This document shows, piece by piece, positions 7,370-37,233 of a stretch of DNA of 42,398 nucleotides. The notes under the pieces were generated by a model. The model was not told where the DNA came from and ran no database searches. It saw only the letters and a list, made by a program, of their open reading frames with translations. This DNA comes from Jiangellaceae bacterium (GTDB lineage Bacteria > Actinomycetota > Actinomycetes > Jiangellales > Jiangellaceae), in the NCBI GenBank assembly GCA_014534205.1, contig JACVRX010000001.1, forward strand, positions 1 through 42,398, read 5' to 3'. Positions within the stretch are counted from its first letter, which is position 1, and each line of letters begins with the position of its first letter. Position numbers and translations under genes: made by a program.

Positions 7370-7450
7370 CATCACCAGCCCTGCCGGTACCTCACCCGGC
7401 CTGCAGGCCTGGTGAGGTACCGGCAAGGGTGGCGTACGTGGTCATTCCAG
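7370..7450 (+). repeat. Palindromic intergenic repeat, copy A
   Basis: CCATCACCAGCCCTGCCGGTACCTCACCCGGCCTGCAGGCCTGGTGAGGTACCGGCAAGGGTGGCGTACGTGGTCATTCCAG. It lies between the divergent ATL gene and the 818-aa membrane protein gene. Confidence 0.9.
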
Positions 7451-7511
7451 AACCGCTGCCGCCACGCCGGGCCGGGGCGTACCGGGCATACCGTGCCCCC
7501 AGGCAGCGAGC

Positions 7512-9968
7512 GTGGAAGCATCGGCAACGATGGCGGATACCGGAGTGGACGAGACGCGGGTCCCGGTCCGGGAGATCACGGTCGAGGAGCCGCCGCTTCC
7601 GCGGCGCACCCGCCGGCCGATGGACGTCCTGCGGCTGGTCATCACTGCCCTCGGCGCGGTCGCAATCGTCGGTCTGGCGATCGTCGGCGAACGCACGGCG
7701 ACCGGCCTGGGCGAGGATCTTGCGGAACTCGGCGAGCGGCTGCCACCCGGCCCGGTGGAGCTGCTCGACCTCACCGCCAGCCTGGTCAGCGTGGTCCTGC
7801 CACCGCTGGTCGTAGTCGTGCTCATGGTCCGCGGCCGGCTACGGGCCACCGCGGAGCTCCTCATCGCCGGCGCCATTGCAGCGGTGATAGCCGCCGCGGT
7901 CTCGACGCTCCTCCGCGACGCCGACCCCGGACTCATCGGCGGCGCATTCCAGCCGGTCGACAAACAGGCGGCGACCGAAACCGTGGAACCGGTCGCTCCG
8001 GGGGTCAACGGACCGGCCCAGCTGGTGCCCGCGTACCCAGCGCTGCTCGTCGCCGTGGTCACCGTGACGGCCTGGCTCAACCTGCGCCGAGTCCGGCACG
8101 CCACGATCTTTGCCGTCACCGCGAGCATCGCGGTCGGACTGCTCGAAGGGGTGACGACCGTCCCCGGAGCGCTGCTGTCTCTCGGCATCGGCCGCACGGT
8201 CGGGCTCGGCGTCAGGCTGGCGAGCGGACGCCCGTCGACCGCGCCGGACGGCCGGGCTGTGGGCGTGCTGCTACGCACCGAGGGCTACGACGTGCATGCG
8301 GTTCGTGCTCAGCGGGTGGACCAGCATCGGCGCTACGTCGTCGAGACGTCGACCGGGCCACTGGGCGTGCTGGTCCTCGACCGCGAGAACGAAGGGGCCG
8401 GCCTGCTGGCCGCTCTCATCGCCCAGGCGCGCACCCGCGAAGAAGTGCTGCCCCACGAGGAGCTCAGCCTGCGCGGCGCCCTCGACCGCGCCGCCCTGCT
8501 GTCGCTGGCCCTCAGCGGAGCGGGCGCCCGGACGCCCCGATTACGCCAGGCGCTCAACATCGGCGACGACGCCGCGGTGCTCGTGTTCGACCACATTCCC
8601 GGCCGGCCGCTCGCGGATGTGCGGCCCGGCGAGGTAACCGACGCCGTGCTGGCCGACTTGTGGCAGCAGGTGCAGCACCTGCACCAGAGCCAGGTGGCAC
8701 ACCGGCGGCTCTCCGCACGCACCATCCTGGTCGGAGACGACGGAAAGGTGTGGTTGCTCAACCCGTCCGGCGGCGAGATCGCCGCTCCGGACCTGGCGCT
8801 GCGGGTGGATCTGGCGCAGGCACTGGTCACCGTCGGGCTGGTCGTGGGCCCGGACCGGGCCGTCTCGACTGCGATCACCGCATTGGGCCCGGAACAAGTC
8901 GCCTCGGCGCTCCCGGTGCTGCAGCCCATCGCGCTCGCCCGGACGACGCGACGCGCGCTGCGCCGAAACCACGCCCTGGTCCGGCAGCTGCGCGACCGCA
9001 TCGTCGCACGTACCAAGCTCGAAGAGCCGGTACCGATCCGAATAGAACGAGTGCGGCCGCTTTCGCTGCTCACCGGTCTGGGGGCAGTTCTTGCCGTCTA
9101 CCTCGTGGGCACTCAGCTCGCCGAAGCACCAGTCGGGACATTGCTGTCCCAGGTGCAGTGGGGCTGGGTAGCCCTTGCGCTCGTGTCGATGGCCGTCAAC
9201 TTCGTCGGCGCTGCGTACGCATTACTCGGGTTCGTGCCCGAGCACGTGCCGTTCTGGCGCACGTACGGAGCTCAGGTCTGCCTCGGCTTCGTCCGGCTGG
9301 CCGCGCCAGCCGCAGTCGGTACCGCGGCGATCAACCTGCGCCTGCTGTCTCGGGCTGGTATCGGCGGCCCGCCGGCCGCGGCCAGCGTCGCAGCGAACCA
9401 AGCGGGGAACGTAGCCGTCTCCATTCCGCTGATCATCGTGCTGGGCATCGTCACGGGGTCGTCGGCGACGTTCAGCCTGGACCCGTCGCCCACGACACTG
9501 GCCATCCTGGCCGGCGCAATCGTGCTGGCCGGCGTGCTTCTGCTCATGCCGCCGATTCGGATCAGGGCCCGCGCCGTGTGGGACGACTTCACCAGGCGGG
9601 GACTGCCACGCCTGCTCGACGTCCTCGGCAACCCGCGCAAACTCACCGAGGCCGTCGGCGGCACGCTGCTACAGGCGGCAGCGCTGGTGTTCTGCTTCTA
9701 CGCCTGCATCCGAGCGCTCGGCTCCGACGTCAACATCGCCGCGCTCGCCGTCGTCCAGCTCGTCGGCAACACGGTCGGCTCTGCGGTGCCGACGCCCGGC
9801 GGCCTGGGCGCCGTCGAGGCCGCGCTGACCGCCGGGGTTACCGCGCTCGGCGTCGGCAGCGGCGTCGGGGTGTCGGCCGTGCTGCTGTTCCGCATCGTGA
9901 CGTTCTGGCTGCCGATCCTGCCCGGCTGGATCCTGTGGACCCAGATGCAGAAGCGCGGCCTGCTCTAG
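7512..9968 (+). CDS. Large integral membrane protein: N-terminal TM region, central kinase-like (probably inactive) domain, and C-terminal lysyl-phosphatidylglycerol-synthase-TM / flippase-like (UPF0104) domain
   Basis: ORF 7512..9968 (GTG; alternative ATG at 7530). The C-terminal region is hydrophobic and carries VPTPGGLGAVEAALTAG, typical of the UPF0104/LPG_synthase_TM family. The central region has HLHQSQVAHRRLSARTILVGDDGKVWLLNPSGG, resembling a kinase catalytic loop. Confidence 0.8.
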   Translation: MEASATMADTGVDETRVPVREITVEEPPLPRRTRRPMDVLRLVITALGAVAIVGLAIVGERTATGLGEDLAELGERLPPGPVELLDLTASLVSVVLPPLVVVVLMVRGRLRATAELLIAGAIAAVIAAAVSTLLRDADPGLIGGAFQPVDKQAATETVEPVAPGVNGPAQLVPAYPALLVAVVTVTAWLNLRRVRHATIFAVTASIAVGLLEGVTTVPGALLSLGIGRTVGLGVRLASGRPSTAPDGRAVGVLLRTEGYDVHAVRAQRVDQHRRYVVETSTGPLGVLVLDRENEGAGLLAALIAQARTREEVLPHEELSLRGALDRAALLSLALSGAGARTPRLRQALNIGDDAAVLVFDHIPGRPLADVRPGEVTDAVLADLWQQVQHLHQSQVAHRRLSARTILVGDDGKVWLLNPSGGEIAAPDLALRVDLAQALVTVGLVVGPDRAVSTAITALGPEQVASALPVLQPIALARTTRRALRRNHALVRQLRDRIVARTKLEEPVPIRIERVRPLSLLTGLGAVLAVYLVGTQLAEAPVGTLLSQVQWGWVALALVSMAVNFVGAAYALLGFVPEHVPFWRTYGAQVCLGFVRLAAPAAVGTAAINLRLLSRAGIGGPPAAASVAANQAGNVAVSIPLIIVLGIVTGSSATFSLDPSPTTLAILAGAIVLAGVLLLMPPIRIRARAVWDDFTRRGLPRLLDVLGNPRKLTEAVGGTLLQAAALVFCFYACIRALGSDVNIAALAVVQLVGNTVGSAVPTPGGLGAVEAALTAGVTALGVGSGVGVSAVLLFRIVTFWLPILPGWILWTQMQKRGLL

Positions 9969-10004
9969 CCGCTTGGCCGCTACCCCAGATGGGCAGTCGG
10001 CCGG

Positions 10005-11207
10005 TCAATAGGACGGCTGCGAGGAGTCGATCTGACGCACCCACGCGGCGACGCCACCGCCCACGTGTACCGCGTCGGCGTAGCCCGCGCCCTTGACGAT
10101 GGCCAGCGCGTCAGCGGACCGGGACCCCATCTTGCAGTGCAGTACGACCTGCTTGTCCGACGGCAGTCGCTCCAGTGCGTCCCCGCTGAGGAACTCACCC
10201 TTCGGGATGAGCACCGAGCCCGGGATGCGGTTGATCTCGTACTCCGCCGGCTCCCGGACGTCCACCAGCACGAAGTCACGCTCGCCGCGGTCGCGCGCCG
10301 CAAGCCAGTCGGCCAGCGTGTGCACGGAGATCGTCGAGTCCACGGCAGCCGCCGCCGCTTCGTCGCTCAGCACGCCGCAGAACGCCTCGTAGTCGACCAG
10401 TTCGGTGATCGTGGGGTTCTCGCCGCAGATCGCGCACTCGGGGTCCTTGCGCACCGACACCGTCCGGTACGACATCTCCAGCGCGTCGTAGATCAGCAGC
10501 CGGCCGAGCAGCGGCGCGCCGATGCCCGTCAGCAGCTTGATCACCTCGGTCACCTGCACCGAGCCGACCGACGCGCACAGCACCCCGAGCACACCGCCCT
10601 CCGCGCATGACGGCACCATCCCGGCCGGTGGTGGCTCCGGGTACAGGCAGCGGTAGCACGGGCTGGTGCCGCCCGGCGCGGTGGCCCAGAACACTGACGC
10701 CTGCCCGTCGAACCGGTAGATCGAACCCCACACGTACGGCTTGCCGAGCAGCACGCAAGCGTCGTTGACCAGATAACGGGTGGCGAAGTTGTCGGTACCG
10801 TCCAGGATGAGGTCGTAGTCGGCAAAGATCCGCATCACGTTGTCGTTGTCGAGACGCTCCTCGTGCACCACGACGGTGACGTACGGGTTGATCTCGGCGA
10901 CACTCGCCTTCGCCGACAATGCCTTGGGCGTGCCGATGTCGGACTGTCCGTGGATGACCTGCCGCTGCAGGTTGGACTCGTCGACGACGTCGAAGTCGAC
11001 GACACCCAGCGTGCCGACACCGGCGGCGGCCAGGTACATCAGGGCGGGCGAGCCGAGCCCGCCGGCGCCGATCACGAGCACCCGGGCGTTCTTCAGCCGC
11101 TTCTGGCCGGCCATGCCGACATCCGGGATGATCAGGTGCCGGGAGTACCGGCGGACTTCGTCGACGCTCAGGTGGTCTGCGGGTTGGACCAGAGGGGGCA
11201 GCGACAC
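10005..11207 (-). CDS. moeZ: Adenylyltransferase/sulfurtransferase MoeZ (ThiF/MoeB E1-like domain plus C-terminal rhodanese)
   Basis: ORF 10005..11342, trimmed to GTG 11207 (VSLPPLVQPADHLSVDEVRRYSRHLIIPDVGMAGQKRLKNARVLVIGAGGLGSP). It has CxxC pairs (CYRC, CAIC). The rhodanese active site is VLHCKMGSRS. Confidence 0.9.
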   Translation of the reverse strand: MSLPPLVQPADHLSVDEVRRYSRHLIIPDVGMAGQKRLKNARVLVIGAGGLGSPALMYLAAAGVGTLGVVDFDVVDESNLQRQVIHGQSDIGTPKALSAKASVAEINPYVTVVVHEERLDNDNVMRIFADYDLILDGTDNFATRYLVNDACVLLGKPYVWGSIYRFDGQASVFWATAPGGTSPCYRCLYPEPPPAGMVPSCAEGGVLGVLCASVGSVQVTEVIKLLTGIGAPLLGRLLIYDALEMSYRTVSVRKDPECAICGENPTITELVDYEAFCGVLSDEAAAAAVDSTISVHTLADWLAARDRGERDFVLVDVREPAEYEINRIPGSVLIPKGEFLSGDALERLPSDKQVVLHCKMGSRSADALAIVKGAGYADAVHVGGGVAAWVRQIDSSQPSY

Positions 11208-11225
11208 GTCGGCTCCGAATCGGGC

Positions 11226-11273
11226 TCTGCAATGCGGGCGGTCTGCAATGCGGGCAGTCTGCAATGCGGGCGG
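11226..11273. repeat. Tandem direct repeat, 3 x 16 nt (TCTGCAATGCGGGCRG)
   Basis: Units at 11226-11241, 11242-11257 and 11258-11273 differ at one base. The array lies 19 nt upstream of the moeZ start, in the moeZ / acidic-protein divergent spacer. Confidence 0.9.
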
Positions 11274-11387
11274 GTTGTGCGGTCGTCCACCCCAACGGTG
11301 CCATCCACCAGGCGATTCCCGCGCACCAGGTCCGGCTGACAAGACGCCTGTAGGCTCGGTTGCTCCCCGGACGACAGGAGGGCGCGA

Positions 11388-11606
11388 ATGTCCGAAAGCG
11401 ACATCAGCGAGGTGGAGGACGTCTGGTCGCCGGGCGCTGAACCGGTCGAGCCGGACCTGGAGGCACCGGAGGCCGACGCCGTCGAGCAGCAGCAGGACGT
11501 CCTGGTCGCCGACGACGAGCCGCCTGCCGTGCCGTACGACGTCGATCCGGCCGACGCGGCGGAGCAGAGCCGGACCGTCCCGTACGACGAGGACGACTAC
11601 CGCTGA
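11388..11606 (+). CDS. Small, highly acidic hypothetical protein (72 aa)
   Basis: The ATG is preceded by AGGAGG 7 nt upstream. Third-position GC is high. The sequence is MSESDISEVEDVW...PPAVPYDVDPADAAEQSRTVPYDEDDYR, with two VPYDxD motifs. Confidence 0.6.
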   Translation: MSESDISEVEDVWSPGAEPVEPDLEAPEADAVEQQQDVLVADDEPPAVPYDVDPADAAEQSRTVPYDEDDYR

Positions 11607-11626
11607 GCGGGCAGATCAGCGCGACA

Positions 11627-12244: not shown

Positions 12245-12412
12245 CCGTCCGGGCGGCGCTCATCCGGCCGTCCCGACCCGCGGCTGCCGTGCCCCCATCG
12301 GCAGGCCCGCACGTACGGACCCGGATCCCGTGCATACGGCGGGCGACTGATGCGCCCAGGCGCCGTCGTATGGACCCAAACCCGCCGTTCAGGCGGCCGG
12401 CGACCCTTGCAC

Positions 12413-12494
12413 CCATCACCAGGCCTGCCCGTACATCACCAGGCCTGCAGGCCTGGTGATGTACGGGCAGGGGTGGTGTACGTGGTCATTCCAG
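12413..12494 (+). repeat. Palindromic intergenic repeat, copy B (contains a perfect 48-nt palindrome at 12424-12471)
   Basis: CCATCACCAGGCCTGCCCGTACATCACCAGGCCTGCAGGCCTGGTGATGTACGGGCAGGGGTGGTGTACGTGGTCATTCCAG. It lies between the TetR gene and the DUF3107 gene. Confidence 0.95.
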
Positions 12495-12575
12495 AACGGC
12501 GAGGAGGCCCGGCTAGCCTGGCGATCGGAAAGACACGTGGGCGCGGCGGCGCGCCGAGCGAGTGAGAGGTGGCCC

Positions 12576-12803
12576 GTGGAGGTCAAGATCGGAGTTCACA
12601 ACGCGACCCGAGAGCTGATCTTGGAGAGCACGCAGACGCCCGAGGAGGTCGAGAAGGCCGTGATGGACGCGCTCGGCGGCAAGAGCGATGTCCTCGACCT
12701 GACCGACGACCGGGGTCGTCGGGTCATCGTGGCGACGGCCCATCTCACCTACGTCGAGATCGGCGAGCAGATCGAGCGCCGGGTCGGCTTCGGCGCGCTG
12801 TGA
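12576..12803 (+). CDS. DUF3107-family protein (TB9.4-like)
   Basis: ORF 12456..12803, trimmed to GTG 12576 because the upstream part is repeat copy B. The sequence VEVKIGVHNATRELILESTQTPEEVEKAVMDALGGKSDVLDLTDDRGRRVIVATAHLTYVEIG resembles the conserved mycobacterial TB9.4 protein as I recall it. Confidence 0.75.
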   Translation: MEVKIGVHNATRELILESTQTPEEVEKAVMDALGGKSDVLDLTDDRGRRVIVATAHLTYVEIGEQIERRVGFGAL

Positions 12804-23545: not shown

Positions 23546-23626
23546 CCATCACCAGGCCTGCTCGTACATCACCAGGCCTGCAGGCCTGGTGATGTACGAG
23601 CAGGGGTGGTGTACGTGGTCATTCCA
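23546..23626 (+). repeat. Palindromic intergenic repeat, copy C (perfect 48-nt palindrome at 23557-23604)
   Basis: CCATCACCAGGCCTGCTCGTACATCACCAGGCCTGCAGGCCTGGTGATGTACGAGCAGGGGTGGTGTACGTGGTCATTCCAG. It ends 28 nt beyond the stop of the lyase gene. Confidence 0.95.
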
Positions 23627-23653
23627 GAGAGTTACCGGGCCGATCGGGTTGAG

Positions 23654-24655
23654 TTATTCGGTGGCTGGAGGGGTGAACGAGGAGGTGCGGGTGAGGCCGG
23701 CGGCGCGGCCTTGCGCGGCGAGCACCAGGGCCATCTTGCGGGACGCCTCGTCGATCATCTCGTCGCCCAGCATGACCGCCCCGAGCTTCCCGCCCGCCTC
23801 GGACGTGTACCAGTCATAGGCGTCCAGGATCAGCTCCGCGTGGTCGTAGTCCTCCTGCCTCGGCGTATACATCTCGTTGGCGGCCTCGATCTGCCCAGGA
23901 TGGAGCACCCACTTGCCGTCGAAGCCGAGCGCCGCCGACCGGCGGGCCACCCGACGGAAACCGGCGACGTCGCGGATGTGCGGATACGGCCCATCGATCG
24001 CCTGCTTGTCGTATGCCCGCGCCGCAATCAGGATCCGCATCAGGATGTAGTGGTAGGCATCGCCGACGTCGTATCCGGCTGGCTGCTCCCCCACGACGAG
24101 CGAGCGCATGTTGATCGACGCCATGAAGTCCGTCGGCCCGAAGATGATCGACTCGATGCGCGGCGACGCCTGAGCGATTGCGTCGACGTTGACCAGGCCG
24201 ACCGCGTTCTCGATCTGCGCTTCGAAGCCGATCCGGCCGCGCTCCAGCCCCAGACTCCCTTCCAGCTGGGTGAGCAGCAGGTCCAGTGCAACTACCTGCT
24301 CGGCGCTCTGCACCTTCGGCAGCATCAGGCAGTCCAGGTGCTCACCCGCTCCCTCCACCACCTGGATGACGTCGGCGTAAGTCCACGTCGTCGTCCAGTC
24401 GTTGACCCGCACCACTCGTGTCTTGCCGGTCCAGTCCCCACCGGTCAGCGCGGCGACGACGTTCTTGCGCGCGTCTCGCTTGGCGAGCGGCGCCACCGAG
24501 TCCTCCAGGTCAAGGAACACCTGGTCGGCGGGCAGTCCCTGGGACTTGTCGAGCATCTTCGGGCTGGAACCCGGCACAGCCAGGCACGACCGGCGGGCCC
24601 GCGTTGGACGCGACACCGGACGCACTCTAGCCAGCCGTCGTTGCGCCCACCGCAT
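23654..24655 (-). CDS. HpcH/HpaI aldolase / CitE-family CoA-ester lyase (malyl-CoA / beta-methylmalyl-CoA lyase-like)
   Basis: RRSCLAVPGSSPKMLDKSQGLPADQVFLDLEDSVAPLAKRDARKNVV...VVRVNDWTTTWTYADV...LMLPKV. I place the start at ATG 24655. The ORF track begins at TTG 24691. Confidence 0.8.
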   Translation of the reverse strand: MRWAQRRLARVRPVSRPTRARRSCLAVPGSSPKMLDKSQGLPADQVFLDLEDSVAPLAKRDARKNVVAALTGGDWTGKTRVVRVNDWTTTWTYADVIQVVEGAGEHLDCLMLPKVQSAEQVVALDLLLTQLEGSLGLERGRIGFEAQIENAVGLVNVDAIAQASPRIESIIFGPTDFMASINMRSLVVGEQPAGYDVGDAYHYILMRILIAARAYDKQAIDGPYPHIRDVAGFRRVARRSAALGFDGKWVLHPGQIEAANEMYTPRQEDYDHAELILDAYDWYTSEAGGKLGAVMLGDEMIDEASRKMALVLAAQGRAAGLTRTSSFTPPATE

Positions 24656-24718
24656 GTCGTGTCGTGGTGTTGGTTGATCTCCGTTCGACAAGACAACGAC
24701 AAGACAACAAGGGGCGAC

Positions 24719-28025: not shown

Positions 28026-28056
28026 CGCAGGGGTAAGCTCGGCGATAACAACTGCA

Positions 28057-28155
28057 GACGACAGGGGAGCGCACAGCGCTGAGAGTGTGGGCCGGGGAGC
28101 CCGCAGACCCTCGAACCTGATCCGGGTAATGCCGGCGCAGGGAGTCGACAGTCAC
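28057..28155 (+). promoter_or_regulatory. TPP (thiamine pyrophosphate) riboswitch, THI-box aptamer
   Basis: CGACAGGGGAGCGCACAGCGCTGAGAGTGTGGGCCGGGGAGCCCGCAGACCCTCGAACCTGATCCGGGTAATGCCGGCGCAGGGAGTCG. This carries the conserved GGGG.GC...CUGAGA...ACCC..GAACCUGAUC.GG.UAAU.CC.GCG.AGGGA core with a CGAC/GUCG P1 stem. It lies directly upstream of ykoE. Confidence 0.85.
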
Positions 28156-28247
28156 GACGCGGCGCGCCCACGGACGATTCGTGGCGCGCCGTTCCAGTGT
28201 CGTGACCGAGCGCGAAGCCACCCTCCTGATTTCGACGGGAGGAAGTC

Positions 28248-28874
28248 ATGAGCGATCAGGACGTTCGACGCGCGACGTCGTCCGGAGCGGTGGAGGGGCA
28301 CCGGCGGGGCTGGCGGACCGTGGACATCGTCGTTACCGCCGTGCTGGGCGTGACGTTCGGCGTGGTGTTCTGGGCGTGGAATGCGTTGTGGGTAGCCCTG
28401 GACCCAGCCTTCAAGGCGTTCCCGCCGGGGCAGGGGTTCATGTACGGGATGTGGCTGGTGCCCGGCGTGCTCGCCATGCTGGTGGTCCGCAAACCGGGCG
28501 CGGCGGTGTTCGCGATGCTGGTCGCGTCGACCGTCAGCGCGTTGCTGGGTGTCACCTGGGGCGTGCAGGTGATCTGGTACGGGCTGCTCGAGGGGCTGGC
28601 GCCCGAGCTGGTCTTCCTGGCTACCCGATACCGGCGGTTCACACTTTTGGTCGCAACGGCGGCCGCCGCCGCCGCAGGTCTGACGGCGTTCGCGCTGGAC
28701 TGGTTCTACTACTACCGCGACTGGTCGGCCGGCTGGCTCACCGCCTATGCGGTGCTGGTGACGCTGAGCTCGGTGGTCATCGCCGGAGTCGGGTCGTGGC
28801 TCCTGGTCCGCCGGCTGGCGGCGACCGGGGTGCTGGACGCGTTCCCGTCCGGCCGGGAACGGACCCGAGTCTGA
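28248..28874 (+). CDS. ykoE: ECF transporter S (substrate-binding) component, YkoE-type (thiamine-precursor/HMP)
   Basis: GGGAGGAAG lies 5 nt upstream of the ATG. The protein is a multi-TM protein of 208 aa (WRTVDIVVTAVLGVTFGVVFWAWN...). The assignment rests on its context between the TPP riboswitch and the duplicated ATPase and T components. Confidence 0.75.
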   Translation: MSDQDVRRATSSGAVEGHRRGWRTVDIVVTAVLGVTFGVVFWAWNALWVALDPAFKAFPPGQGFMYGMWLVPGVLAMLVVRKPGAAVFAMLVASTVSALLGVTWGVQVIWYGLLEGLAPELVFLATRYRRFTLLVATAAAAAAGLTAFALDWFYYYRDWSAGWLTAYAVLVTLSSVVIAGVGSWLLVRRLAATGVLDAFPSGRERTRV

Positions 28875-30352
28875 CCGGCTGCCGGATCGAGGCGCGCGGC
28901 TGGGGCTGGCGGCACGCCGGACGCCGCCGGCCTGCGCTCCGCGAGCTCGACCTCGTCGTCGAGCCCGGTGAGCGGCTGCTGCTGCTCGGCCGGTCCGGCG
29001 CCGGCAAGAGCACCCTGCTCACCGCGCTGGCCGGGCTGCTGGACCCGTCGCACGCGGGCGAGCCGGAAGGCCGGCTGACCGTCGACGGGCTCGACCCACG
29101 GGACGCCCGCGACCGGACCGGGCTGCTGTTCCAGGACCCGCAGACCCAGCTGGTCATGGCCCGGGCCGGCGACGACGTCGCGTTCGGGCCGGAGAACCGG
29201 GCCGTTCCCGCCGAGGCGATCTGGCGGCTGGTCGAGGCTTCGCTGGCGGCCGTCGGTTTCCCATACGGGCGGGACCGCCGCACCGAGCAGCTGTCTGGCG
29301 GAGAGCAGCAGCGGCTTGCGCTCGCCGGCATCCTGGCGCTCTCGCCCCGGCTGCTGCTGTTCGACGAACCGACGGCGAACCTCGACCCGCTGGGCGCCAC
29401 GCTGGTACGCGAGGCGATCGCAGCAGTGCAGCAGGCCACCGGCGCGACGGTCGTACTCGTCGAGCACCGTGTCGCCGAGACTCTGCCACTTGTCGATCGG
29501 GTGGTGGTCCTGGAAGCCGGCGGCGGCGTCGCCGCGGACGGGCCGCCGGACGTCGTCTTCGCGACGTATGGGGACCAGCTCTCAGCAGCCGGTGTCTGGG
29601 TGCCGGCGCACCCCATGCCGGTGCGCCGCGCCACCGGACCCCCGGGCGGTGAGTTGCTGGTGGCTCGCGGCGTGGGCTTCTTCCACCGCGGAGCCGTGCG
29701 GCCGGCGCTGGCCGGGGTGTCGACCGAGCTCCGCGCCGGACAGGCACTCGCCGTCGTCGGCCCGAACGGCTCCGGCAAGTCCACCCTGGCGACGATCCTG
29801 GCCGGGCTAGTGCCGCCGACCGTCGGAACTGTCCGGACAAGCCGGGCACTCGCTGGCGCCGACGAACTCAGCCCGCCACATCGCTGGCCGGCGGCACAGT
29901 TGGCGGACCGGATCGGCATGGTGTTCCAGGACCCGGAGCACCAGTTCCTCACCGGGCGGGTTCGGGACGAGCTCGCCTTCGGGCCGTCGCGGCGCGGCGT
30001 TCCCGCTGAGACAGTCGGCCGGCTCGTCGACGACGTGCTGGCCCGCCTAAACCTCACCCACCTCGCCGAGGCGAACCCGTTCACGCTCTCCGGGGGCGAG
30101 CAGCGCCGGCTGTCCGTCGCCACCGCGCTGACGACGAGCCCGTCCGTGCTGGTGCTGGACGAGCCGACGTTCGGCCAGGACCAGCGGACCTGGTTGCAGC
30201 TGCTGGACCTGCTCGCCGACCGCCGCGACGCCGGCGGAGCCATCTGCGCGGTGACGCACGACGAGGCGTTCGTGACGTCGCTCGCCGACGAGGTGTTGCG
30301 GCTCGACGCCGGACGCGCGGTTTCCGCCGGTGGTCGGGAGGTCGCGGCATGA
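28796..30352 (+). CDS. ykoD: ECF transporter fused double ATPase (A-A' component), YkoD-type
   Basis: Frame of ORF 28181..30352. There are two ABC cassettes: GRSGAGKSTL / LSGGEQQRLALAG / LLLFDEPTANLD, and GPNGSGKSTL / LSGGEQRRLSVATAL / VLVLDEPTFGQD. The start is uncertain. GTG 28796 overlaps ykoE by 79 nt, and the only codon at the ykoE stop is CTG 28871. Confidence 0.8.
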   Translation: MAPGPPAGGDRGAGRVPVRPGTDPSLTGCRIEARGWGWRHAGRRRPALRELDLVVEPGERLLLLGRSGAGKSTLLTALAGLLDPSHAGEPEGRLTVDGLDPRDARDRTGLLFQDPQTQLVMARAGDDVAFGPENRAVPAEAIWRLVEASLAAVGFPYGRDRRTEQLSGGEQQRLALAGILALSPRLLLFDEPTANLDPLGATLVREAIAAVQQATGATVVLVEHRVAETLPLVDRVVVLEAGGGVAADGPPDVVFATYGDQLSAAGVWVPAHPMPVRRATGPPGGELLVARGVGFFHRGAVRPALAGVSTELRAGQALAVVGPNGSGKSTLATILAGLVPPTVGTVRTSRALAGADELSPPHRWPAAQLADRIGMVFQDPEHQFLTGRVRDELAFGPSRRGVPAETVGRLVDDVLARLNLTHLAEANPFTLSGGEQRRLSVATALTTSPSVLVLDEPTFGQDQRTWLQLLDLLADRRDAGGAICAVTHDEAFVTSLADEVLRLDAGRAVSAGGREVAA

Positions 30353-31104
30353 TGGCGATCGCGCTGGAGCCGGTCAGCGCTGGCCGGCTCGCCCGGGCCA
30401 ACCCGGCCGCCAAACTCGGCGCGTGTTTTCTCCTCGGCCTGGGCGCGTCACTCACCGACGACGCGCTCACGCCGGCGCTGCTTCTCGGCGGTGTCGTGGT
30501 CGCCATGGTCGTCGGCGGTGTCCCAGTGCGCGTGCTCGTGACCCGCGGCTGGGTGCTCCTCGTCTCGGCGACCGGCCTGGGCCTCACCACGCTGCTGTTC
30601 GGCGACTCGCAGCAGCCGTGGCTCACGGCGGTTACCGTCACCGTACGGGTGCTTGCGATCGCGCTGCCGGGTGTGATCGTCATGCTCACCATCGACCCAA
30701 CCGACCTGGCCGACTCGCTGGTGCAGAACACCCGGGTACCCGCGCGGTTCGCGTACGCAGCGCTCGCCGCGTTACGGCTGTTGCCGCTGCTTGCAGTCGA
30801 GTGGACGACGATCAAGCTGGCCCGCCGAGCCCGCGGCGTCGACGCCGGGCGCAACCCGGTGCGGCACGCCCAGCAGTTCGCGGGAACCGTGTTCACGCTG
30901 CTGGTCGGCGCGATGCGGCGCGGCACCCGGCTGGCCCTGGCCATGGATGCGCGCGGCTTCGACTCCACCGGCCCGCGTACGGTGGCCCGGACCCAGCGGG
31001 TACGGCGCTCCGACTTCGCGCTGATCGCCGGTTCGGTGCTGCTGGTGGCGGCGGCGTTCGTGCTGAGCACTGCACTCGGCATCTTCCGCCCCGTCTGGTC
31101 GTGA
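30349..31104 (+). CDS. ykoC: ECF transporter transmembrane (T) component, CbiQ/EcfT family
   Basis: ATGA overlap with the ykoD stop. The protein is hydrophobic and carries the LARRARGVD and AMDARGF coupling motifs. Confidence 0.85.
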   Translation: MMAIALEPVSAGRLARANPAAKLGACFLLGLGASLTDDALTPALLLGGVVVAMVVGGVPVRVLVTRGWVLLVSATGLGLTTLLFGDSQQPWLTAVTVTVRVLAIALPGVIVMLTIDPTDLADSLVQNTRVPARFAYAALAALRLLPLLAVEWTTIKLARRARGVDAGRNPVRHAQQFAGTVFTLLVGAMRRGTRLALAMDARGFDSTGPRTVARTQRVRRSDFALIAGSVLLVAAAFVLSTALGIFRPVWS

Positions 31105-31125: not shown

Positions 31126-31207
31126 CTGAAATGACCACGTACACAACCCCGGCTGGTACATCACCAGGCCTGCACGCCTGGTGATGCACCAGCAGGCCTG
31201 GGAATGG
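31126..31207 (-). repeat. Palindromic intergenic repeat, copy D (reverse orientation)
   Basis: CTGAAATGACCACGTACACAACCCCGGCTGGTACATCACCAGGCCTGCACGCCTGGTGATGCACCAGCAGGCCTGGGAATGG. It lies between the convergent ykoC and marR-like genes. Confidence 0.9.
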
Positions 31208-31683: not shown

Positions 31684-31689
31684 ACCACG

Positions 31690-32877
31690 ATGGTAAGCGA
31701 GGTCGAGACACGTAGCATCGAAGCCGTGCCCACCCATCCAACAACCGAACAGATCACCGGCGCGCTGGCGACGGTCCACGATCCGGAAATCAAGCGCCCC
31801 ATCACCGACCTCGGCATGGTCAAGTCCGTCCACGTTGCCGACGACGGCCAGGTGCGGGTCGACGTGTTCCTCACCGTGTCTGGCTGCCCCCTCCGCGACA
31901 CGATCACCCGAGACGTCACGGCAGCCGTGTCCGCGCTGCCCGGCGTGACGGGTGTCGACGTCGCACTGGACGTCATGTCCGACCAGCAGCGCGCCGAGCT
32001 GTCGCGGCAACTGCGCGGCGGCGTCGCCGAGCGGGAGATAACGTTCGCCAAGCCCGGGTCGCTCACTCGGGTATACGCGGTCGCCTCGGGCAAGGGCGGC
32101 GTGGGCAAGTCGTCGGTCACGGTCAACCTCGCTGCGGCGATGGCCGCGGACGGGGTTCGGGTCGGGCTGCTCGACGCCGACATCTACGGCCACTCGGCGC
32201 CCCGGATGCTCGCGGTGGACGGTACCCATCCCACCATCGTCGAGCGGATGATCATGCCGGTGCCCACGCACGGGGTGAAGCTGATCTCGACCGAGATGTT
32301 CAAGCCGGACCGTGACGCTCCCGTCGCCTGGCGCGGTCCGATGCTGCACCGGGCGCTGCAGCAGTTCCTCTCCGACGTGTTCTGGGGCGACTTGGACGTG
32401 CTGCTCCTCGACCTGCCGCCGGGCACCGGCGACGTGGCGATCTCGCTCGCGCAGCTGCTGCCGTCCGCTGAGCTCGTCGTGGTCACGACGCCCCAAGTCG
32501 CCGCCGCGGAGGTGGCGGAGCGGGCCGGTTCGATCGCGATCCAGACGCACCAGCAGGTCGCCGGCGTGATCGAGAACATGTCGTACCTGCCGTGCCCGCA
32601 CTGCGGGTCGACGCACCGGCTGGAGTTGTTCGGGTCCGGGGGTGGCGCCTCGGTTGCCGCTGGACTCAGCCGCCGGCTCGGCACGTCAGTGCCCACGCTG
32701 GGTGAGGTGCCCTTCGACGTGCGGCTGCGGGAAGGCGCGGACCGAGGTGTTCCGCTGGTGCTGTCCGACCCGACGGCACCGGCGGCGGAGGCACTGCGTG
32801 AGGTGGCCCGGGCGCTGTCGCACCGGCGCCGTGGGCTGGCTGGATTGTCGCTCGACTTGACGCCCGCCGGGCGCTGA
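31690..32877 (+). CDS. mrp: Mrp/ApbC/NBP35-family Fe-S cluster carrier ATPase
   Basis: Frame of ORF 31204..32877, starting at ATG 31690 (alternative GTG 31726). The N-terminal domain is DUF59-like (ALATVHDPEIKRPITDLGMV). Deviant Walker A: VASGKGGVGKSS. CPHCGS motif present. Confidence 0.9.
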   Translation: MVSEVETRSIEAVPTHPTTEQITGALATVHDPEIKRPITDLGMVKSVHVADDGQVRVDVFLTVSGCPLRDTITRDVTAAVSALPGVTGVDVALDVMSDQQRAELSRQLRGGVAEREITFAKPGSLTRVYAVASGKGGVGKSSVTVNLAAAMAADGVRVGLLDADIYGHSAPRMLAVDGTHPTIVERMIMPVPTHGVKLISTEMFKPDRDAPVAWRGPMLHRALQQFLSDVFWGDLDVLLLDLPPGTGDVAISLAQLLPSAELVVVTTPQVAAAEVAERAGSIAIQTHQQVAGVIENMSYLPCPHCGSTHRLELFGSGGGASVAAGLSRRLGTSVPTLGEVPFDVRLREGADRGVPLVLSDPTAPAAEALREVARALSHRRRGLAGLSLDLTPAGR

Positions 32878-32904
32878 CGGACCTCCGCAGCCGGCACGCC
32901 TGGG

Positions 32905-32986
32905 CCATCACCAGGCCTGCCCGTAGATCACCTGGCCTGCTGGCCTGGTGATCTACGGGCAGTGGTGGTGTACGTGGTCATTCCAG
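32905..32986 (+). repeat. Palindromic intergenic repeat, copy E
   Basis: CCATCACCAGGCCTGCCCGTAGATCACCTGGCCTGCTGGCCTGGTGATCTACGGGCAGTGGTGGTGTACGTGGTCATTCCAG. It lies between the convergent mrp and tatB genes. Confidence 0.9.
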
Positions 32987-32991
32987 CAGCG

Positions 32992-33354
32992 TTACGTGGT
33001 GTCTGGGTCGAAGGGGGTGGCGGCGGGAGTCGCCTGGGTGGGGTTCGCCGATGCGGCGGCGGAACGGTCCGGGCGGCGGCGGTGCGGCTGGTCGTCGTCC
33101 AGCCCGAGGTCCAGCCCGTCGAGCACGTTGCGCCGGACGTAGGACCTCGCGTTGAGGTTCTGCAACTTGCGCAGGTCGTCAGGATCCACGCCGATGCTGT
33201 CGGAGAGGTCCCGCCGCGCGTTCGCCACGAACCGGCGCAGGTCCCCGACCCAGGCCCCGGCTTGCCGGGCCATCTGGGGCAACCGGTCCGGCCCGAAGAC
33301 GAGCAGCCCGACGATCAGGATGACGAGCAGCTCTGGCGCTTCGATGCCGAACAC
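32992..33354 (-). CDS. tatB: Twin-arginine translocase subunit TatB
   Basis: MFGIEAPELLVILIVGLLVFGPDRLPQMARQAGAWVGDLRRF. It is positioned next to htrA, as in the mycobacterial sigE-rseA-htrA-tatB cluster. Confidence 0.85.
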   Translation of the reverse strand: MFGIEAPELLVILIVGLLVFGPDRLPQMARQAGAWVGDLRRFVANARRDLSDSIGVDPDDLRKLQNLNARSYVRRNVLDGLDLGLDDDQPHRRRPDRSAAASANPTQATPAATPFDPDTT

Positions 33355-33406
33355 GTTGCCCCCAGTCGGCGCCTCCGGTCGGTGAACACGGTCCAGCGTA
33401 CGAGGC

Positions 33407-34660
33407 TCAGTCGACCGCCGACCCGAGCACCAAGGTGACGTCGTCGACCGAGCCGCCGCGCTCGACGCGTAACGTCACGCGCTCGCCCGGTTCCCGCGCC
33501 CGCAGCGCCACGATCAGCTCCTCGGCCGAGTTGACGTCCCTGTCTCCTATTCGGGTGATGACGTCTCCTGGTTCGATCCCGGCGCCGGCCGCCGGCCCGT
33601 CCGGCTCGACGCCCGCCGCACGGCCGTCGCCGGCCGCGATCCGCGCGCCGCGCCCGGTGAACGTGCTGTCCAGCCGGACACCCATTACCGGGTATACGGC
33701 CCGGCCGGTCTCGATTATCTGCCCGGCCGTCCGCGCAGCCTGGTCGATCGGGATCGCGAAGCCGAGCCCGATGTTGCCGGGCACCGGGCCGGTTCGGACC
33801 GACGCGATGGCCGAGTTGACCCCGATGACCCGGCCGGCGGCATTCACCAGCGGACCGCCGGAGTTGCCCGGATTGATCGCGGCGTCGGTCTGCAACGCGT
33901 TGATGAACGCCGTCTCGCCTCGTCCGCCGGCCGTCACCGCTCGGTCCACCGCCGAGATGATCCCGCTGGTGACCGTGCTGTCCAGCCCGAGCGGGCTGCC
34001 GATCGCGAGCACCGGGTCGCCGACGGCCACGTCGGCGGACGTCCCCAGCCGCACCGGCCGCAGACCGTCGCGGTCGACCCGCAGCACCGCCAGGTCGTAG
34101 CTTGGGCTGCGGCCCACTACCTCGGCGGGCGTTCTGGAGCCGTCGAAGAAACCGAGCTCGATCCCGGTGCCGTCGGTCGCTGCGGCGATCACGTGACTGT
34201 TGGTGAGCACGTAGCCGTTGGCGGCGATGATGAAGCCGGACCCGGATGCGTCGCCCACCGTCACCGACACGACGCTGTCCAGCACGTCGGCGGCGATTCC
34301 AGCGACGGACTCCGGCGGCCGGTCAGCCACAGCCGTTTCGTCGGCACCGAGCACCGTGACGGTCCCCGGTCGGGATCCGGCGAGCCGGTCGGCCAACAGG
34401 CCGCTGACCGCAGCGCCCGCCGCACCGGCCACCACAGCGATGAGCGCCGCCGTGAGTACCAGCACCCCGGGGCGTATCGCTGCACTCGCAGCGGCATGGG
34501 TACGTCCAGCCGGCGCCTCGAGCGCCGGCTGGACCACCGCGAACGGGTCCGCCTTGCCGACGGGCACCTGGACCCACGGGTCGCGGGAGTTGCCCGAGTG
34601 CCCGGAATCCGGGCCGGGGGGGCGCGACCATCCGGCGGCCGCACGGTTGGCTGCACTCAC
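33407..34660 (-). CDS. htrA: HtrA/DegP-family trypsin-like serine protease with a TM anchor and C-terminal PDZ domain
   Basis: VLTNSHV, DLAVLRV, TDAAINPGNSGGPLVN, and a PDZ-like GIEPGDVITRIGDRDV. GTG start at 34660. Confidence 0.9.
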   Translation of the reverse strand: MSAANRAAAGWSRPPGPDSGHSGNSRDPWVQVPVGKADPFAVVQPALEAPAGRTHAAASAAIRPGVLVLTAALIAVVAGAAGAAVSGLLADRLAGSRPGTVTVLGADETAVADRPPESVAGIAADVLDSVVSVTVGDASGSGFIIAANGYVLTNSHVIAAATDGTGIELGFFDGSRTPAEVVGRSPSYDLAVLRVDRDGLRPVRLGTSADVAVGDPVLAIGSPLGLDSTVTSGIISAVDRAVTAGGRGETAFINALQTDAAINPGNSGGPLVNAAGRVIGVNSAIASVRTGPVPGNIGLGFAIPIDQAARTAGQIIETGRAVYPVMGVRLDSTFTGRGARIAAGDGRAAGVEPDGPAAGAGIEPGDVITRIGDRDVNSAEELIVALRAREPGERVTLRVERGGSVDDVTLVLGSAVD

Positions 34661-34691
34661 TCGGGTCCGCCCGGCATGGCTACCGGCATGG

Positions 34692-35759
34692 CTAGTCGAA
34701 CGGGTTGAGCCACGACACCACCCGTCCAGCCCCGTTTCCGATCCGGGCGAGCAGGCTGCGGTCGTCGTCGTGCTTCGTCGGCGGCAGCTCGGCGAGCAGC
34801 GCGTCGAGCGTCTCCGCCGGCGCGTCCGCGACCACGGTCACCACCCGATCATCGGTGGACCAGGTGAACTGTGCAGGCGGCCCCGGCGTGCTGTAGACGA
34901 CGCCCCCGTTCACCTCCCGCGCAACAAACCCGGCCAGCCGATCGGCGTCGAGGCGGCCGCGCTGCTCGAACACCGACACTGTGGCGACGCCGTCGGAGTA
35001 GCTGAGCTGGAACGCGTCGCCGACTCGACGGGCCTCGTATAGCTGGAACCCGCCCGGCAACCGGCGAGGGCAGCTCCAACCTCCGGCGCGCAACTCGGCC
35101 AGGTCGTCATGGCGTAGCCAGCGGTCCTCCGGGTCGGACTGCGTCGCTTCGACGGCGGCCGGTGCCGGCTCGATGTGAACTTCGATGAACGCGCTAGCCG
35201 TACGGGTCGTGCCGTCCTCGGCATAGATCTCACGGCGCAGTGGCAGCGCCCACTCGCTGTCGAGCCACAGCCGCGCCGCCGGCGTGCCGTCGTCGCGTCG
35301 CGCTTCAACGATGTTCGCGGGGCGGCCCGCCACCGCCGACACGCCGATGATCTCCACGTCGTATCCGCGTACAAGCAGACCGACCGGCCCGCCCGCACCA
35401 GCCAGCCAGGCGGTCCCGCTTCGCTCGTCGACCATCGCGAGCGGCTGAGCGCCGTGAGCCCGGATCCGGGTGGGACCGCCGGGCTCGTGGATGACGTCTA
35501 CAACGGCGCTCGTCGATCGCTCCGCGTCCAGCGGGGACCACGCGGCGACATACTGCGTTCCGCGGAACCAGACGAGCTCGGGCGCGGCGAGTGCCCGGTG
35601 CAGCAGTCCGACGGCTCCCAGATCGTCGCCGGGATCACTCGATGGAGCGGCAAGCGCGGTGACCGCCGAGCACAGCAGAAGCGGCACGGCGAGCGCCGGG
35701 CCGGCCAGCGCCGTCAGGATGTGCGGACCTCGGCGGATCGGCGCCAAGGACCCGGTCAC
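34692..35759 (-). CDS. MucB/RseB-like (LolA-fold) putative sigma-E regulatory protein, with a signal peptide
   Basis: GTGA overlap with the rseA stop. YDVEIIGVSAVAGRPANIVEARRDDGTPAARLWLDSEWALPLRREIYAEDGTTRTASAFIEVHI parallels E. coli RseB YDFISVGRTRIADRLCEVIRVVARDGTRYSYIVWMDTESKLPMRVDLLDRDGETLEQFRVIAF, as I recall it. RLPGGFQL...LSYSDGVATVSVF parallels WLPQGFSE...LYSDGLFSFSV. Confidence 0.7.
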   Translation of the reverse strand: MTGSLAPIRRGPHILTALAGPALAVPLLLCSAVTALAAPSSDPGDDLGAVGLLHRALAAPELVWFRGTQYVAAWSPLDAERSTSAVVDVIHEPGGPTRIRAHGAQPLAMVDERSGTAWLAGAGGPVGLLVRGYDVEIIGVSAVAGRPANIVEARRDDGTPAARLWLDSEWALPLRREIYAEDGTTRTASAFIEVHIEPAPAAVEATQSDPEDRWLRHDDLAELRAGGWSCPRRLPGGFQLYEARRVGDAFQLSYSDGVATVSVFEQRGRLDADRLAGFVAREVNGGVVYSTPGPPAQFTWSTDDRVVTVVADAPAETLDALLAELPPTKHDDDRSLLARIGNGAGRVVSWLNPFD

Positions 35760-36346
35760 CGCCGGTCGCCTGCCACGGCAGGGACGACGACCGCAGCGGG
35801 CTCCGCGAACGGCAGGCCGCCGGTCGCCTTGGCGTGTTCGACGGTGAACTGGCGGATCGGCGGCACCACCGACGCGGGCGGCGATCCGCTGGTTGCCGGT
35901 GCGCCCAGCGTGGCGAGGAGCATCGTGAGTGCGCCCGCAGACAAGGCGCCCACGGCCACTACGCGGACCCGATCACGACGGGTTCGTACGCCCGGCTCCG
36001 GTCGCCGCTGGCCCGGAACGGGACCTGGCCGGCCGGCAGGCGGCCGTCGGGTGATCCAGGCTCGGTCTCGGACAGTTGTGCCTTGTCCCGCGTCCGCTCC
36101 GGGCAGTGGCCGCCGCGGCGGCGGCAGCGGATCCCCTGGTTCGGCCAGCGCGCGTAACGATGCCACCAGCGACGCTGGCGGGCGGGCGGCGGGCAGGCGG
36201 CGCAACGCTGCTTTGGCCTGGCGCTCGAGCTCGACCGCCATCCGGCACTGCTCGCACCTGGTGACGTGGGCCAACGCCCGGTCGCGGTCGTCGTGGCCGA
36301 GCTGGTCGTCGACCAGAGCGGTGACGATCACACCGAGATGTCTCAT
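35756..36346 (-). CDS. rseA: Anti-sigma-E factor (zf-HC2, RseA-like)
   Basis: ATGA overlap with the sigE stop. HxxxCxxC motif: [14 protein letters not shown]. Confidence 0.8.
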
Positions 36347-36999
36347 GGCGCCTCCTCCCGGATGTCGGGCGAGACGGCCGAGTCCTCGCCGGCCGAAGGC
36401 GGCGCGCGATGGTCGAGGGCAGCGCGAAGCTGGGCGCGACCCCGGTGTATCCGGCTGCGCACGGTGCCCAGCTTGACGCCGAGGGTGGCCGCGATCTCCT
36501 CATAGGACAGGCCCTCGATGTCGCAGAGCACGACCGCGGCTCGAAAGTCGGCCGGTAACGCGTCCAGCGCTGCCTGGATGTCGGCGTCGAGCAGCCGGTC
36601 GTCGATCGTGCCGTCCGGCGTCGGCTCCCGGCCGGACAGCCGGTCGACCGCGCCCGCACCGAGCGTGTCGAAACGAAGGCGCTGCTTGCGCCGTACGCCG
36701 TCGAGGAACAGGTTCGTGGTGATGCGGTGCAGCCAGCCCTCGAACGTCCCCGGCGAGTACGACGACAGGGACCGGAACACCCGGACGAACACGTCCTGGG
36801 TGAGGTCCTCGGCGTCGTGCGCGTTACCGGTCAACCGGTAAGCGAGCCGGTAGACCCGGGCGGAGTGCTCGCGGACCACCTCGTCCCAGGACGGCGGGAC
36901 CCACTCCCCGGCCGGAACAGCGTCCGGACCCGGATCGGCGTCGTCGCCCACCTGGGATCCTCCCTCGCGGGTCAGCATGGCCACGAGAACTGTTTCCAT
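36343..36999 (-). CDS. sigE: ECF RNA polymerase sigma factor SigE
   Basis: Region 2: [30 protein letters not shown]. Region 4: [31 protein letters not shown]. The start is uncertain (36999 or downstream). Confidence 0.9.
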
Positions 37000-37141
37000 C
37001 GTGACCCACGTCCCTTTCCCTGGCCAACCGCCTCGGCCGATCGGGTGTTCCCGCCGGCCCGGCGCGCCCGAGCGGCTTGTTCGGGGAACGTCCCGAACGC
37101 ACCGGTGGGTTCCCTAGCCGGGCGCTGCTTTCCGTGACTCC

Positions 37142-37233
37142 GGAATGACCACGTACACCATGTCTGCCCGTACATCACCAGGCGTGTAAGCCTGGTGATG
37201 TACCCACGGGGGTGGTGAACGTGGTCATTCCAG
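37142..37233. repeat. Palindromic intergenic repeat, copy F (variant carrying the tail sequence at both ends as terminal inverted repeats)
   Basis: GGAATGACCACGTACACCATGTCTGCCCGTACATCACCAGGCGTGTAAGCCTGGTGATGTACCCACGGGGGTGGTGAACGTGGTCATTCCAG. It lies between the divergent sigE and O-methyltransferase genes. Confidence 0.9.

Follow-up and report, generated by a model that had tools for sequence, protein, structure and literature searches.

The stretch of DNA analysed here, referred to as the window, is a whole contig of 42,398 bp from an uncultured member of the Jiangellaceae (JACVRX010000001.1). A repeat search detected in it one dispersed family of short hairpin-forming sequences, composed of five elements of one type (form A), one element of a second type (form B) and a degenerate relic. 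The groups produced by the search are located at 7369-7451, 12413-12495, 23546-23628, 32905-32987 and 37152-37234, with a copy in reverse orientation at 31126-31207 and the relic at 6924-7006. A degenerate pattern of 40 nt built on the copies, GCCTGGTGANNTACNNNCNNNGGTNGNGNACGTGGTCATT, finds exactly six matches in the window and none in 100 shuffled versions of it. With a nhmmer profile, scores of 88-103 bits are obtained for the six copies, and of 32 bits for the relic. The six copies and the relic listed in an earlier note on this DNA were all recovered by these searches, and what is said there of the forward consensus, of the asymmetric tail and of the direct repeat CATCACCAGGCCTGC is correct. 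One correction concerns the sixth copy: the five form A elements share one design, with one tail and the left tail missing, and the sixth is of another form, a full palindrome with a tail at both ends (form B, extending over 37138-37235). In related genomes, hairpins of this family bracket a gene coding for a protein with a predicted nuclease domain.

All six copies are intergenic and occur in divergent, co-directional and convergent spacers, as had been proposed; this is confirmed by Pfam annotation of the neighbouring genes and by tblastn with the proteins of relatives. The form A copy at 7369-7451 (+ strand, 91.8 bits), with the tail ACGTGGTCATTCCAGA on its right, occupies the divergent spacer between an AdnB-like gene (start at or before 6950, - strand) and a LPG synthase gene (start at about 7512, + strand). 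The reference copy, at 12413-12495 (+ strand, 102.9 bits), has a fully paired stem (-61 kcal/mol, z -7.1) and lies in a co-directional context, after the stop codon of the 11627-12244 gene and before a DUF3107 gene starting at 12576. The copy at 23546-23628 (+ strand, 98% identity in the repeat search) differs from the reference solely by one compensatory pair, CCC..GGG being changed to CTC..GAG, and its tail lies about 30 nt from the stop codon of a HpcH aldolase gene (23654-24691, - strand). The most diverged copy, a form A element at 31126-31207 (- strand, 95.3 bits), is placed between the convergent genes for CbiQ (ending at 31104, + strand) and MarR (ending at about 31228, - strand), with the tail directed towards the CbiQ stop. 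The copy at 32905-32987 (+ strand) separates the convergent genes for Mrp (ending at 32877) and TatB (stop codon at 32992-32994), its tail being about 9 nt from the TatB stop. The form B element is made up of the palindrome CCGGAATGACCACGT...ACGTGGTCATTCCAG, scores 88.4 and 63.2 bits on the two strands, folds at -74.5 kcal/mol (z -10) and is located in the divergent spacer between SigE and O-methyltransferase genes. The relic (+ strand, 32.3 bits, E 1.6e-8) is a degenerate form A element, 70% identical to the reference, and overlaps the first candidate start codon, the one giving the longest open reading frame (ORF), of the AdnB-like gene.

In each hairpin the left arm contains the direct repeat CATCACCAGGCCTGC as two copies, 21 nt apart, and the motif CAYCACCAGGC is found four times, two per arm with the same 21-nt spacing. 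The elements end in CCAYCACC and in ACGTGGTCATTCC(GG). The left end of form A, GGCCA-YCACC, pairs with TGGTGA[ACG]TGGTC, and therefore only ATTCC(GG) is left unpaired, beside a bulge of 3 nt. When folded as RNA, on either strand, five of the window copies reach -57 to -74 kcal/mol (z from -5.7 to -10), and the copy at 31126 reaches -43 kcal/mol (z -2.95). A mini-ORF present in the tail-first strand (MTTFTTPARTSPGLQAW) was considered and discarded: in our reading, the palindrome accounts for both its length and its sequence, and the variants of Jiangella gansuensis do not conserve it. The Rfam models, at gathering thresholds, detect in the window only a thiamine pyrophosphate (TPP) riboswitch, and give no match at the elements, at E<=1, in loci L015, L026 and L010, in keeping with the view that no named RNA family is involved. 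Resemblances to integron attC sites, parS sites and the LexA box were also considered and set aside, because the order or sequence of their motifs does not fit and the flanks of the repeats are syntenic housekeeping genes. No published description of the tail or of such repeats was found in the papers searched, the genome paper of J. gansuensis included.

The family extends well beyond the contig, with about 110 more copies in related metagenome-assembled genomes (MAGs) and in soil metagenomes. A genome scan with the strict pattern yielded 42 loci, containing 45 strict and 3 weak copies, in five related MAGs and in two contigs with odd labels. A scan of metagenomes for the tail alone yielded 98 loci, 64 of which contain the element, the other 34 being the chance matches expected. 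Grouping by flank similarity assigned 109 non-window copies to 64 independent sites; 87 of the copies are of form A and 22 of form B, and all of them are, again, intergenic. The repeat is a genuine dispersed hairpin-forming family, more than a terminator hairpin, as the first description had it. The oddly labelled contigs, an Acidimicrobiales one (SMAG_U16, L021) and a 'beta proteobacterium' one (MFD02840.bin.1.387, L041), carry the element outside the Jiangellaceae by name; since L041 is orthologous to L007 and L024 of Jiangellaceae-like MAGs, both are probably mis-binned or mislabelled, rather than the result of horizontal spread.

Presence and absence of the element at orthologous spacers, one of the checks proposed for it, are observed between lineages. 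Positions 9.6-16.7 kb of the window are syntenic with contigs of Jiangellaceae MAGs, at 72-86% nucleotide identity, and the window Mrp protein is 86-89% identical to those of uncultured Jiangellaceae and 80% identical to that of J. gansuensis. None of the spacers filled in the window is filled in the closest syntenic genomes (L142-L145); the Mrp|TatB spacer, as an example, has a length of 115 nt in the window and of only 3 nt in L145. A copy is present in L011 where the window has none. Copies are kept at orthologous sites in closer species, where a single polymorphism was seen, a partial deletion across the hairpin in L064; between genera, the spacers are too diverged to define base-precise boundaries. 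Variants also follow the lineage. A T within GGTGTACGTGG is found in 5 of the 6 window copies, against an A in all 109 copies from elsewhere, and is a genome-specific variant of the lineage to which the window belongs. In the cultured species J. gansuensis, three cognate copies within 21 kb agree with the others in their tail, GRACGTGATCATT, and in the CACCAGGC apex, on different stems, and the syntenic 21 kb of J. mangrovi and of Phytoactinopolyspora limicola contain no copy. Turnover is slow, variants are lineage-specific, and density is very uneven between lineages.

The Mrp|TatB spacer of one relative (L142 11160-11370, MAG MFD08497.bin.1.32) contains two copies of an unrelated palindrome of about 70 nt, CGTGAAGATCGTCGTGAAGAA...GGCGATCTTCACGAC, and convergent gene ends appear to be hotspots for differing families of hairpin repeats.

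Two of the loci detected by the repeat-pattern scan, L015 and L006, contain a pair of copies placed 1.25 kb apart, tails outward, around an ORF of about 330 codons, in the spacer between gpmA and phoU. This first case (L015/L006/L134) was found by means of the repeat itself, while the subsequent loci were picked by protein similarity alone. Homologues of the protein were thus located in the AlkZ|HPF spacer (L149, 70% protein identity to the first case), in the DUF58|SpoIIM spacer (L150/L151, 57%), and in the cysS|PAC2 spacer both of J. endophytica (L152, 56%) and, at the same site, of J. mangrovi (L157, 52%). In 5 of the 5 Jiangellaceae loci picked in this way the gene is contained within an inverted pair of hairpins with their tails outward. 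Including the first case, the units range between 1213 and 1318 bp in size and share one layout: a hairpin end of about 80-90 nt, a gene for a protein of about 320 aa, and an inverted hairpin end, the conserved tail (CCGG)AATGAYCACGTYCACC facing outward on both sides. The two ends of the J. mangrovi unit are 91% complementary over 80 nt.

Hairpin and protein vary together, each protein subfamily having its own variant of the hairpin stem. The variant of L150 also occurs as a solo copy in L145, and that of J. endophytica resembles the solo copies of J. gansuensis. At the AlkZ|HPF spacer, L149 has a full unit and L060/L070 have form B. Each named species appears only once among the 120 best homologues and the same locus is occupied in two species of Jiangella; it hence seems that the gene is present in low copy number and passed on vertically. 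No other gene was found between tails spaced 1.2-1.3 kb, and a search for protein families recurring beside the copies clustered only orthologous neighbours. As a separate observation, tblastn aligns the gene of L134 (1168-2233), between intact hairpin ends, as two pieces in different frames (1-113 and 119-327), which suggests, from the alignment, a frameshifted and decaying copy.

In the encoded protein, residues from about 5 to 200 match AbiEi (PADLOC, E 1e-18; Pfam AbiEi_4), while the C-terminal third has no sequence match in Pfam, NCBIfam or PDB. An AlphaFold2 model built from 46 homologues, with a pLDDT of 91.6 and a pTM of 0.86, was compared to known structures with Foldseek. The N-terminal part matches AbiEi (6y8q) and Rv2827c (1zel). 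For the C-terminal part, about 100 aa long, the structures matched are 1cw0, a Vsr endonuclease (probability 0.99), and 3r3p, which is the catalytic domain of the homing endonuclease I-Bth0305I (probability 1.0, TM 0.76); matches to TnsA are weak. D244, E255 and K261 are conserved in the 46 homologues, as is D257 (>=90%), and the resulting motif "D...E-F-D-G-x-x-K" parallels, to our reading, the "E-V-D-G-x-x-H" of DUF559/Vsr proteins. The model thus predicts, after an AbiEi-type winged helix-turn-helix (wHTH) module, a Vsr-like nuclease domain of the PD-(D/E)XK type. A profile of the family, run on 1.84 billion representatives, retrieves 3073 clusters at E<=1e-30, most of which are full-length.

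The two halves of the protein recall two different systems. In AbiE, a type IV toxin-antitoxin and abortive infection system formed by the antitoxin AbiEi and the nucleotidyltransferase AbiEii, the two genes are bicistronic; here the AbiEi module is bona fide, but the nuclease-fold domain is fused to it instead, and no AbiEii (DUF1814) gene adjoins L015, L149, L150, L152 or L157, where the neighbours are the housekeeping genes gpmA/phoU, AlkZ/HPF, DUF58/SpoIIM and cysS/PAC2. Vsr-like (DUF559-type) homing endonucleases such as I-Bth0305I (PMC3239194) share the C-terminal catalytic fold, predicted in the present case, together with an N-terminal DNA-binding region of the HTH type, and offer a precedent of selfish genes with this fold. 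Differently from the units described here, however, they reside in introns or inteins, or free-standing beside their cleavage target, invade one allele through homologous repair, have no hairpin repeats around them and do not leave solo repeats dispersed.

Outside the Jiangellaceae, tblastn on plasmid-labelled records identified three distant homologues. One, from Tsukamurella, has inverted repeats of 67 nt on both sides, the left arm being itself a hairpin, and a solo copy of the repeat is found in an unrelated spacer of the same strain. In Collinsella aerofaciens, a low-G+C genome of the Coriobacteriia (L155, NZ_OY725717.1), tandemly spaced hairpins of about 60 nt, TGTCTCGATCTGTAAC...GTTACAGATCGAGACA, surround the homologue, four upstream (558-863) and two downstream (1962-2105). 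A second Tsukamurella homologue, with 31% identity, is located at 1222-2142 of L153 (Tsukamurella tyrosinosolvens, NZ_LR134451.1), within a tatB|mrp spacer, which is the spacer holding a solo hairpin in the window.

Taken together, these data make it probable that the window repeats are non-autonomous members of a hairpin-repeat and nuclease-gene system of the Jiangellaceae. As the hairpins bracket the nuclease gene in the relatives, the copies of the window are read as solo ends (form A) and as two ends fused (form B, the remnant of a gene-bearing unit); this is the best-supported assignment of the two forms. The flanks of solo form A copies have no homology to the interiors of the units, which implies that they spread as units of about 80 nt and rules out that they are deletion remnants of full units. 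For form B, the element at 37138-37235 is equivalent to the outer half of a left end joined to that of a right end. Since each unit end is palindromic, the inner stem on the left and that on the right constitute direct repeats, and, judging from the sequences, a deletion between them would produce exactly form B. The interior of a unit may therefore have been lost in this way, or form B may be a copy of such a remnant, in the manner of a MITE (a miniature transposable element with inverted repeats).

A conventional MITE, derived from an insertion sequence (IS) with a DDE transposase and with terminal inverted repeats GGAATGACCACGTTCACC, was also evaluated. Form B does resemble the bacterial MITEs Correia/NEMIS, RUP and Nezha: it is about 95 nt long, has perfect terminal inverted repeats and occurs at one site where a relative has the full 1.3-kb unit, as a MITE and its parent would; in addition, the tails are conserved across genera while the interior is variable. 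Terminal inverted repeats are, however, features of form B (22 of 109) and of the 1.3-kb units, and are absent from the commonest form, the single-tailed form A (87 of 109). At all boundary offsets and for k=2-8, direct repeats beside the element do not exceed chance (58 form A and 16 form B representatives), so that a target-site duplication is missing, and blastn of the consensus against 72,556 plasmids gave no plasmid or IS match. The parent unit carries no DDE, serine or Y1 transposase, its only gene being the AbiEi/Vsr-like one, and no transposase lies in the window, as already noticed. An IS256-family transposase is present in the syntenic locus L147 of J. mangrovi; it was rejected as a parent, L147 being devoid of any tail motif. 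This origin is regarded as the least probable of those examined, and as very improbable.

The hairpin itself was evaluated on one representative per site. In the stem, pairs are formed by 84.5% of the cells, a share that falls to 29-45% upon sliding the partner. Changes on both sides are seen in 51 cells, against 37.4±7.0 in shuffles (13/500), and the covariation score is 0.105, against 0.087 in shuffles (3/500), so that covariation gives moderate support to the maintenance of the hairpin. Mismatches across the copies comprise 61 G:U (G:T) and 83 A:C; as G:U is not in excess over A:C on either strand, no transcribed strand is favoured, and constraint at the RNA level is not visible.

Compensatory changes of this type are also known from REPs (repetitive extragenic palindromes) mobilised by RAYT proteins (REP-associated tyrosine transposases, Y1 enzymes of the HUH class) and from their paired form, the REPINs, of Pseudomonas, Enterobacteria and Stenotrophomonas. 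The likeness is extensive. In both systems short extragenic hairpin repeats with asymmetric ends occur in tens to hundreds of copies, without target duplication and mostly after coding regions, as REPs do (PMC3733652); copies persist at orthologous sites, forming lineage-specific sequence populations, and copy numbers vary widely between lineages; a gene in low copy number, with its own repeat in inverted orientation on its two sides, is found at a locus conserved across species, and gene subfamilies are paired with their own repeat variants. A classical REP/REPIN family served by a RAYT elsewhere in the genome, with the AbiEi/Vsr-like gene as a mere frequent neighbour, could account for such traits. 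REPs are, however, defined by a conserved GTAG (or CGTC) tetranucleotide at one end (PMC3733652), and neither is seen at either boundary in the alignments. A REPIN consists of two inverted REPs of 20-40 nt, while the arms of the present element are not self-complementary REPs, and form one interrupted hairpin of about 40 bp with a conserved tail of 13-19 nt. A RAYT, which the earlier note had suggested looking for, was not found: phmmer with a single E. coli RayT query, of limited sensitivity, gave no RAYT-like ORF at E<0.1 among the six-frame ORFs of the 362 kb and 276 kb (638 kb) around about 110 copies. The gene bracketed in REPtron fashion in 5 of the 5 loci tested is not a Y1 enzyme, and the host belongs to the Actinomycetota, from which the GTAG/CGTC survey reports no such REP families (PMC3733652). 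It is thus highly unlikely that a RAYT is responsible. By none of their defining tests is the system a REP/RAYT family or a DDE-type MITE; the earlier suggestion of a REP/BIME-like element or a MITE indicated the right neighbourhood, but the GTAG/CGTC tag, the RAYT, the target-site duplication and the DDE parent are all missing.

REP/REPIN-RAYT systems are the textbook example of long-lived, vertically inherited bacterial repeat populations, and belong essentially to Proteobacteria and a few other phyla. Their genomic logic recurs here in high-G+C Actinomycetota with an unrelated enzyme class. A tentative extension, which we would put at somewhat less than an even chance, is that the repeats represent an unrecognised class of selfish (or domesticated) elements of the Actinomycetota, in which the AbiEi-wHTH/Vsr-like nuclease plays for them the role that RAYT plays for REPINs. 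In such a class, a nuclease encoded by a low-copy, vertically inherited gene set between hairpin ends would make and maintain populations of hairpins of about 80 nt, through the joint action of the nuclease and of host repair, without target-site duplication.

Among 50 form A orthology groups, 28 lie within 50 nt of a stop codon; according to gene calls based crudely on the G+C content of third codon positions, on which the orientation statistic rests, the stop codon is only on the tail side in 20, only on the other side in 3 and on both in 5 (p=0.0005). The preferred position of solo copies is 0-45 nt downstream of the stop, tail first, and the TGA contained in AATGACC terminates the ORF in about ten cases. 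As the stop codon is mostly on the tail side, the mRNA usually reads stop, then GGAAUGACCACGUU, then hairpin. No U-tract follows the hairpins, and a scan for consensus terminators calls none of the copies. Simple intrinsic termination is therefore unlikely, by analogy with the mycobacterial RNA polymerase, for which the U-tract is a requirement (PMC3993855). The placement may reflect tolerance of the copies, or their use, as stem-loops of the 3' untranslated region (3'-UTR); solo copies are probably tolerated as such.

These features introduce the main rival explanation, in which the hairpins are not mobile and serve the host, by protecting mRNA ends, assisting termination, insulating genes or acting as operators; the AbiEi-like protein would be a regulator recognising the hairpins, its gene flanked by its own operator and terminator, and new copies would be rare and kept by selection. 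Its closest model is TRIT, the 'Tuberculosis Rho-independent terminator' of Mycobacterium, a genus-restricted, sequence-conserved actinobacterial palindrome with over 100 copies placed tightly at gene termini, sometimes overlapping the stop, which lacks a classical U-tract and for which the authors suspected a dedicated binding factor (PMC3152330). The strong placement after stop codons with preferred orientation, the retention of orthologous copies across species, the very stable folds on both strands and the scarcity of canonical U-tract terminators in the region agree with a host function, as does the behaviour of AbiEi antitoxins, autoregulators which bind inverted repeats in their own promoters (PMC7319586). 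TRIT, compared by its description, differs in having no reported associated gene, two-form structure or asymmetric tail, and in its location, since 2 of the 6 window copies (7369, 37138) are in divergent promoter spacers. The same genes are present in other genera and the sites are not conserved; genome-specific variants imply copying from a local master; density is uneven, with 6 copies in the 42-kb window against 3-16 strict copies per MAG. A pure regulator would leave the conserved C-terminal nuclease-fold domain unexplained, and both the lack of a G:U excess (61 against 83) and the U-tract dependence of the mycobacterial polymerase (PMC3993855) speak against this reading. A host function of this kind is judged unlikely.

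Several points weigh against the preferred interpretation, that of a mobile system of hairpins and nuclease gene. To our knowledge, a PD-(D/E)XK nuclease alone is incapable of strand transfer. The cognate gene is absent from the window by tblastn, the window being the whole contig. No clean pair of filled and empty sites was found between close strains, the partial deletion in L064 being the only case. Covariation is moderate, since a large share of the pairing is no more than palindromy passed on by descent, and in about 40% of the copies the stem is unpaired at its middle. Copies were gathered by sequence patterns, so that estimates of the conservation of the right arm and tail are biased; the gene calls beneath the orientation statistic have been mentioned. 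Among the distant homologues, no flanking hairpins are evident at L153, and the Collinsella hairpin was not found dispersed in the 0.9-Mb record at E<=1e-4. Finally, given the binding of inverted repeats by AbiEi (PMC7319586), the hairpin upstream of the gene could be an operator.

If the nuclease does cleave or mobilise the repeats, a possible pathway can be outlined. The protein would bind the CAYCACCAGGC motifs through its wHTH domain and would nick at or near the conserved tail of an extruded hairpin or cruciform; host replication or repair would then copy or reinsert the hairpin unit without target duplication. The surviving copies would mainly be those lying, tail first, within 0-45 nt downstream of a stop codon, and would be transcribed there as very stable 3'-UTR stem-loops devoid of a U-tract, possibly with some effect on the mRNA. 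Were the nuclease to drive the repeats, the system would represent an independent origin of the repeat-population lifestyle and a new mobilisation chemistry free of target-site duplication. Should the relation be general, thousands of entries annotated as 'type IV toxin-antitoxin system AbiEi family antitoxin domain-containing protein' would be mis-assigned, and such repeat families, perhaps together with other actinobacterial gene-end palindromes, would be accounted for. The hypothesis is directly testable, as J. gansuensis, J. mangrovi and J. endophytica are hosts available in culture and with full genome sequences. On a practical level, the repeats mark the 3' ends of genes in organisms lacking classical terminators, represent hotspots at which spacers turn over, and would disturb both the assembly and the binning of Jiangellaceae MAGs.

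Pairs of copies with their tails outward are also found around non-cognate genes. In J. gansuensis (L146, KI911782.1) the copies at 4973-5067 and 9337-9431 bracket a gene for a ThuA/GSDH/PKD/CBM6 protein of 1375 aa, which is present in J. gansuensis and J. mangrovi and absent from the synteny of the window. In the window, the copies at 31126-31207 and 32905-32987 are similarly arranged around the MarR and Mrp genes. Such pairs could be due to coincidence or to element-mediated rearrangement.

Other features of the window were noted along with the repeats. Positions 36999-37135, aligned to L142, L145 and L148, contain blocks conserved across genera, such as CGGGTGTTCCC and GTGGGTTCCCC, upstream of a gene for a SigE-like sigma factor of the extracytoplasmic function (ECF) group; they may correspond to an autoregulated ECF promoter, and the form B copy sits just past them. 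Two adjacent genes for UvrD-helicase and PD-(D/E)XK nuclease proteins, similar to AdnA and AdnB, occupy positions 1-6950 on the - strand, and their internal paralogous similarity was recorded as repeat families D3, D4 and D8. The TPP riboswitch (RF00059, 65.5 bits) extends over 28053-28160 on the + strand, upstream of an operon for a transporter of the ECF (energy-coupling factor) type, which includes ABC_cobalt (28248-28874), a duplicated ABC ATPase up to 30352 and CbiQ (30349-31104), and is presumably a thiamine-related uptake system.

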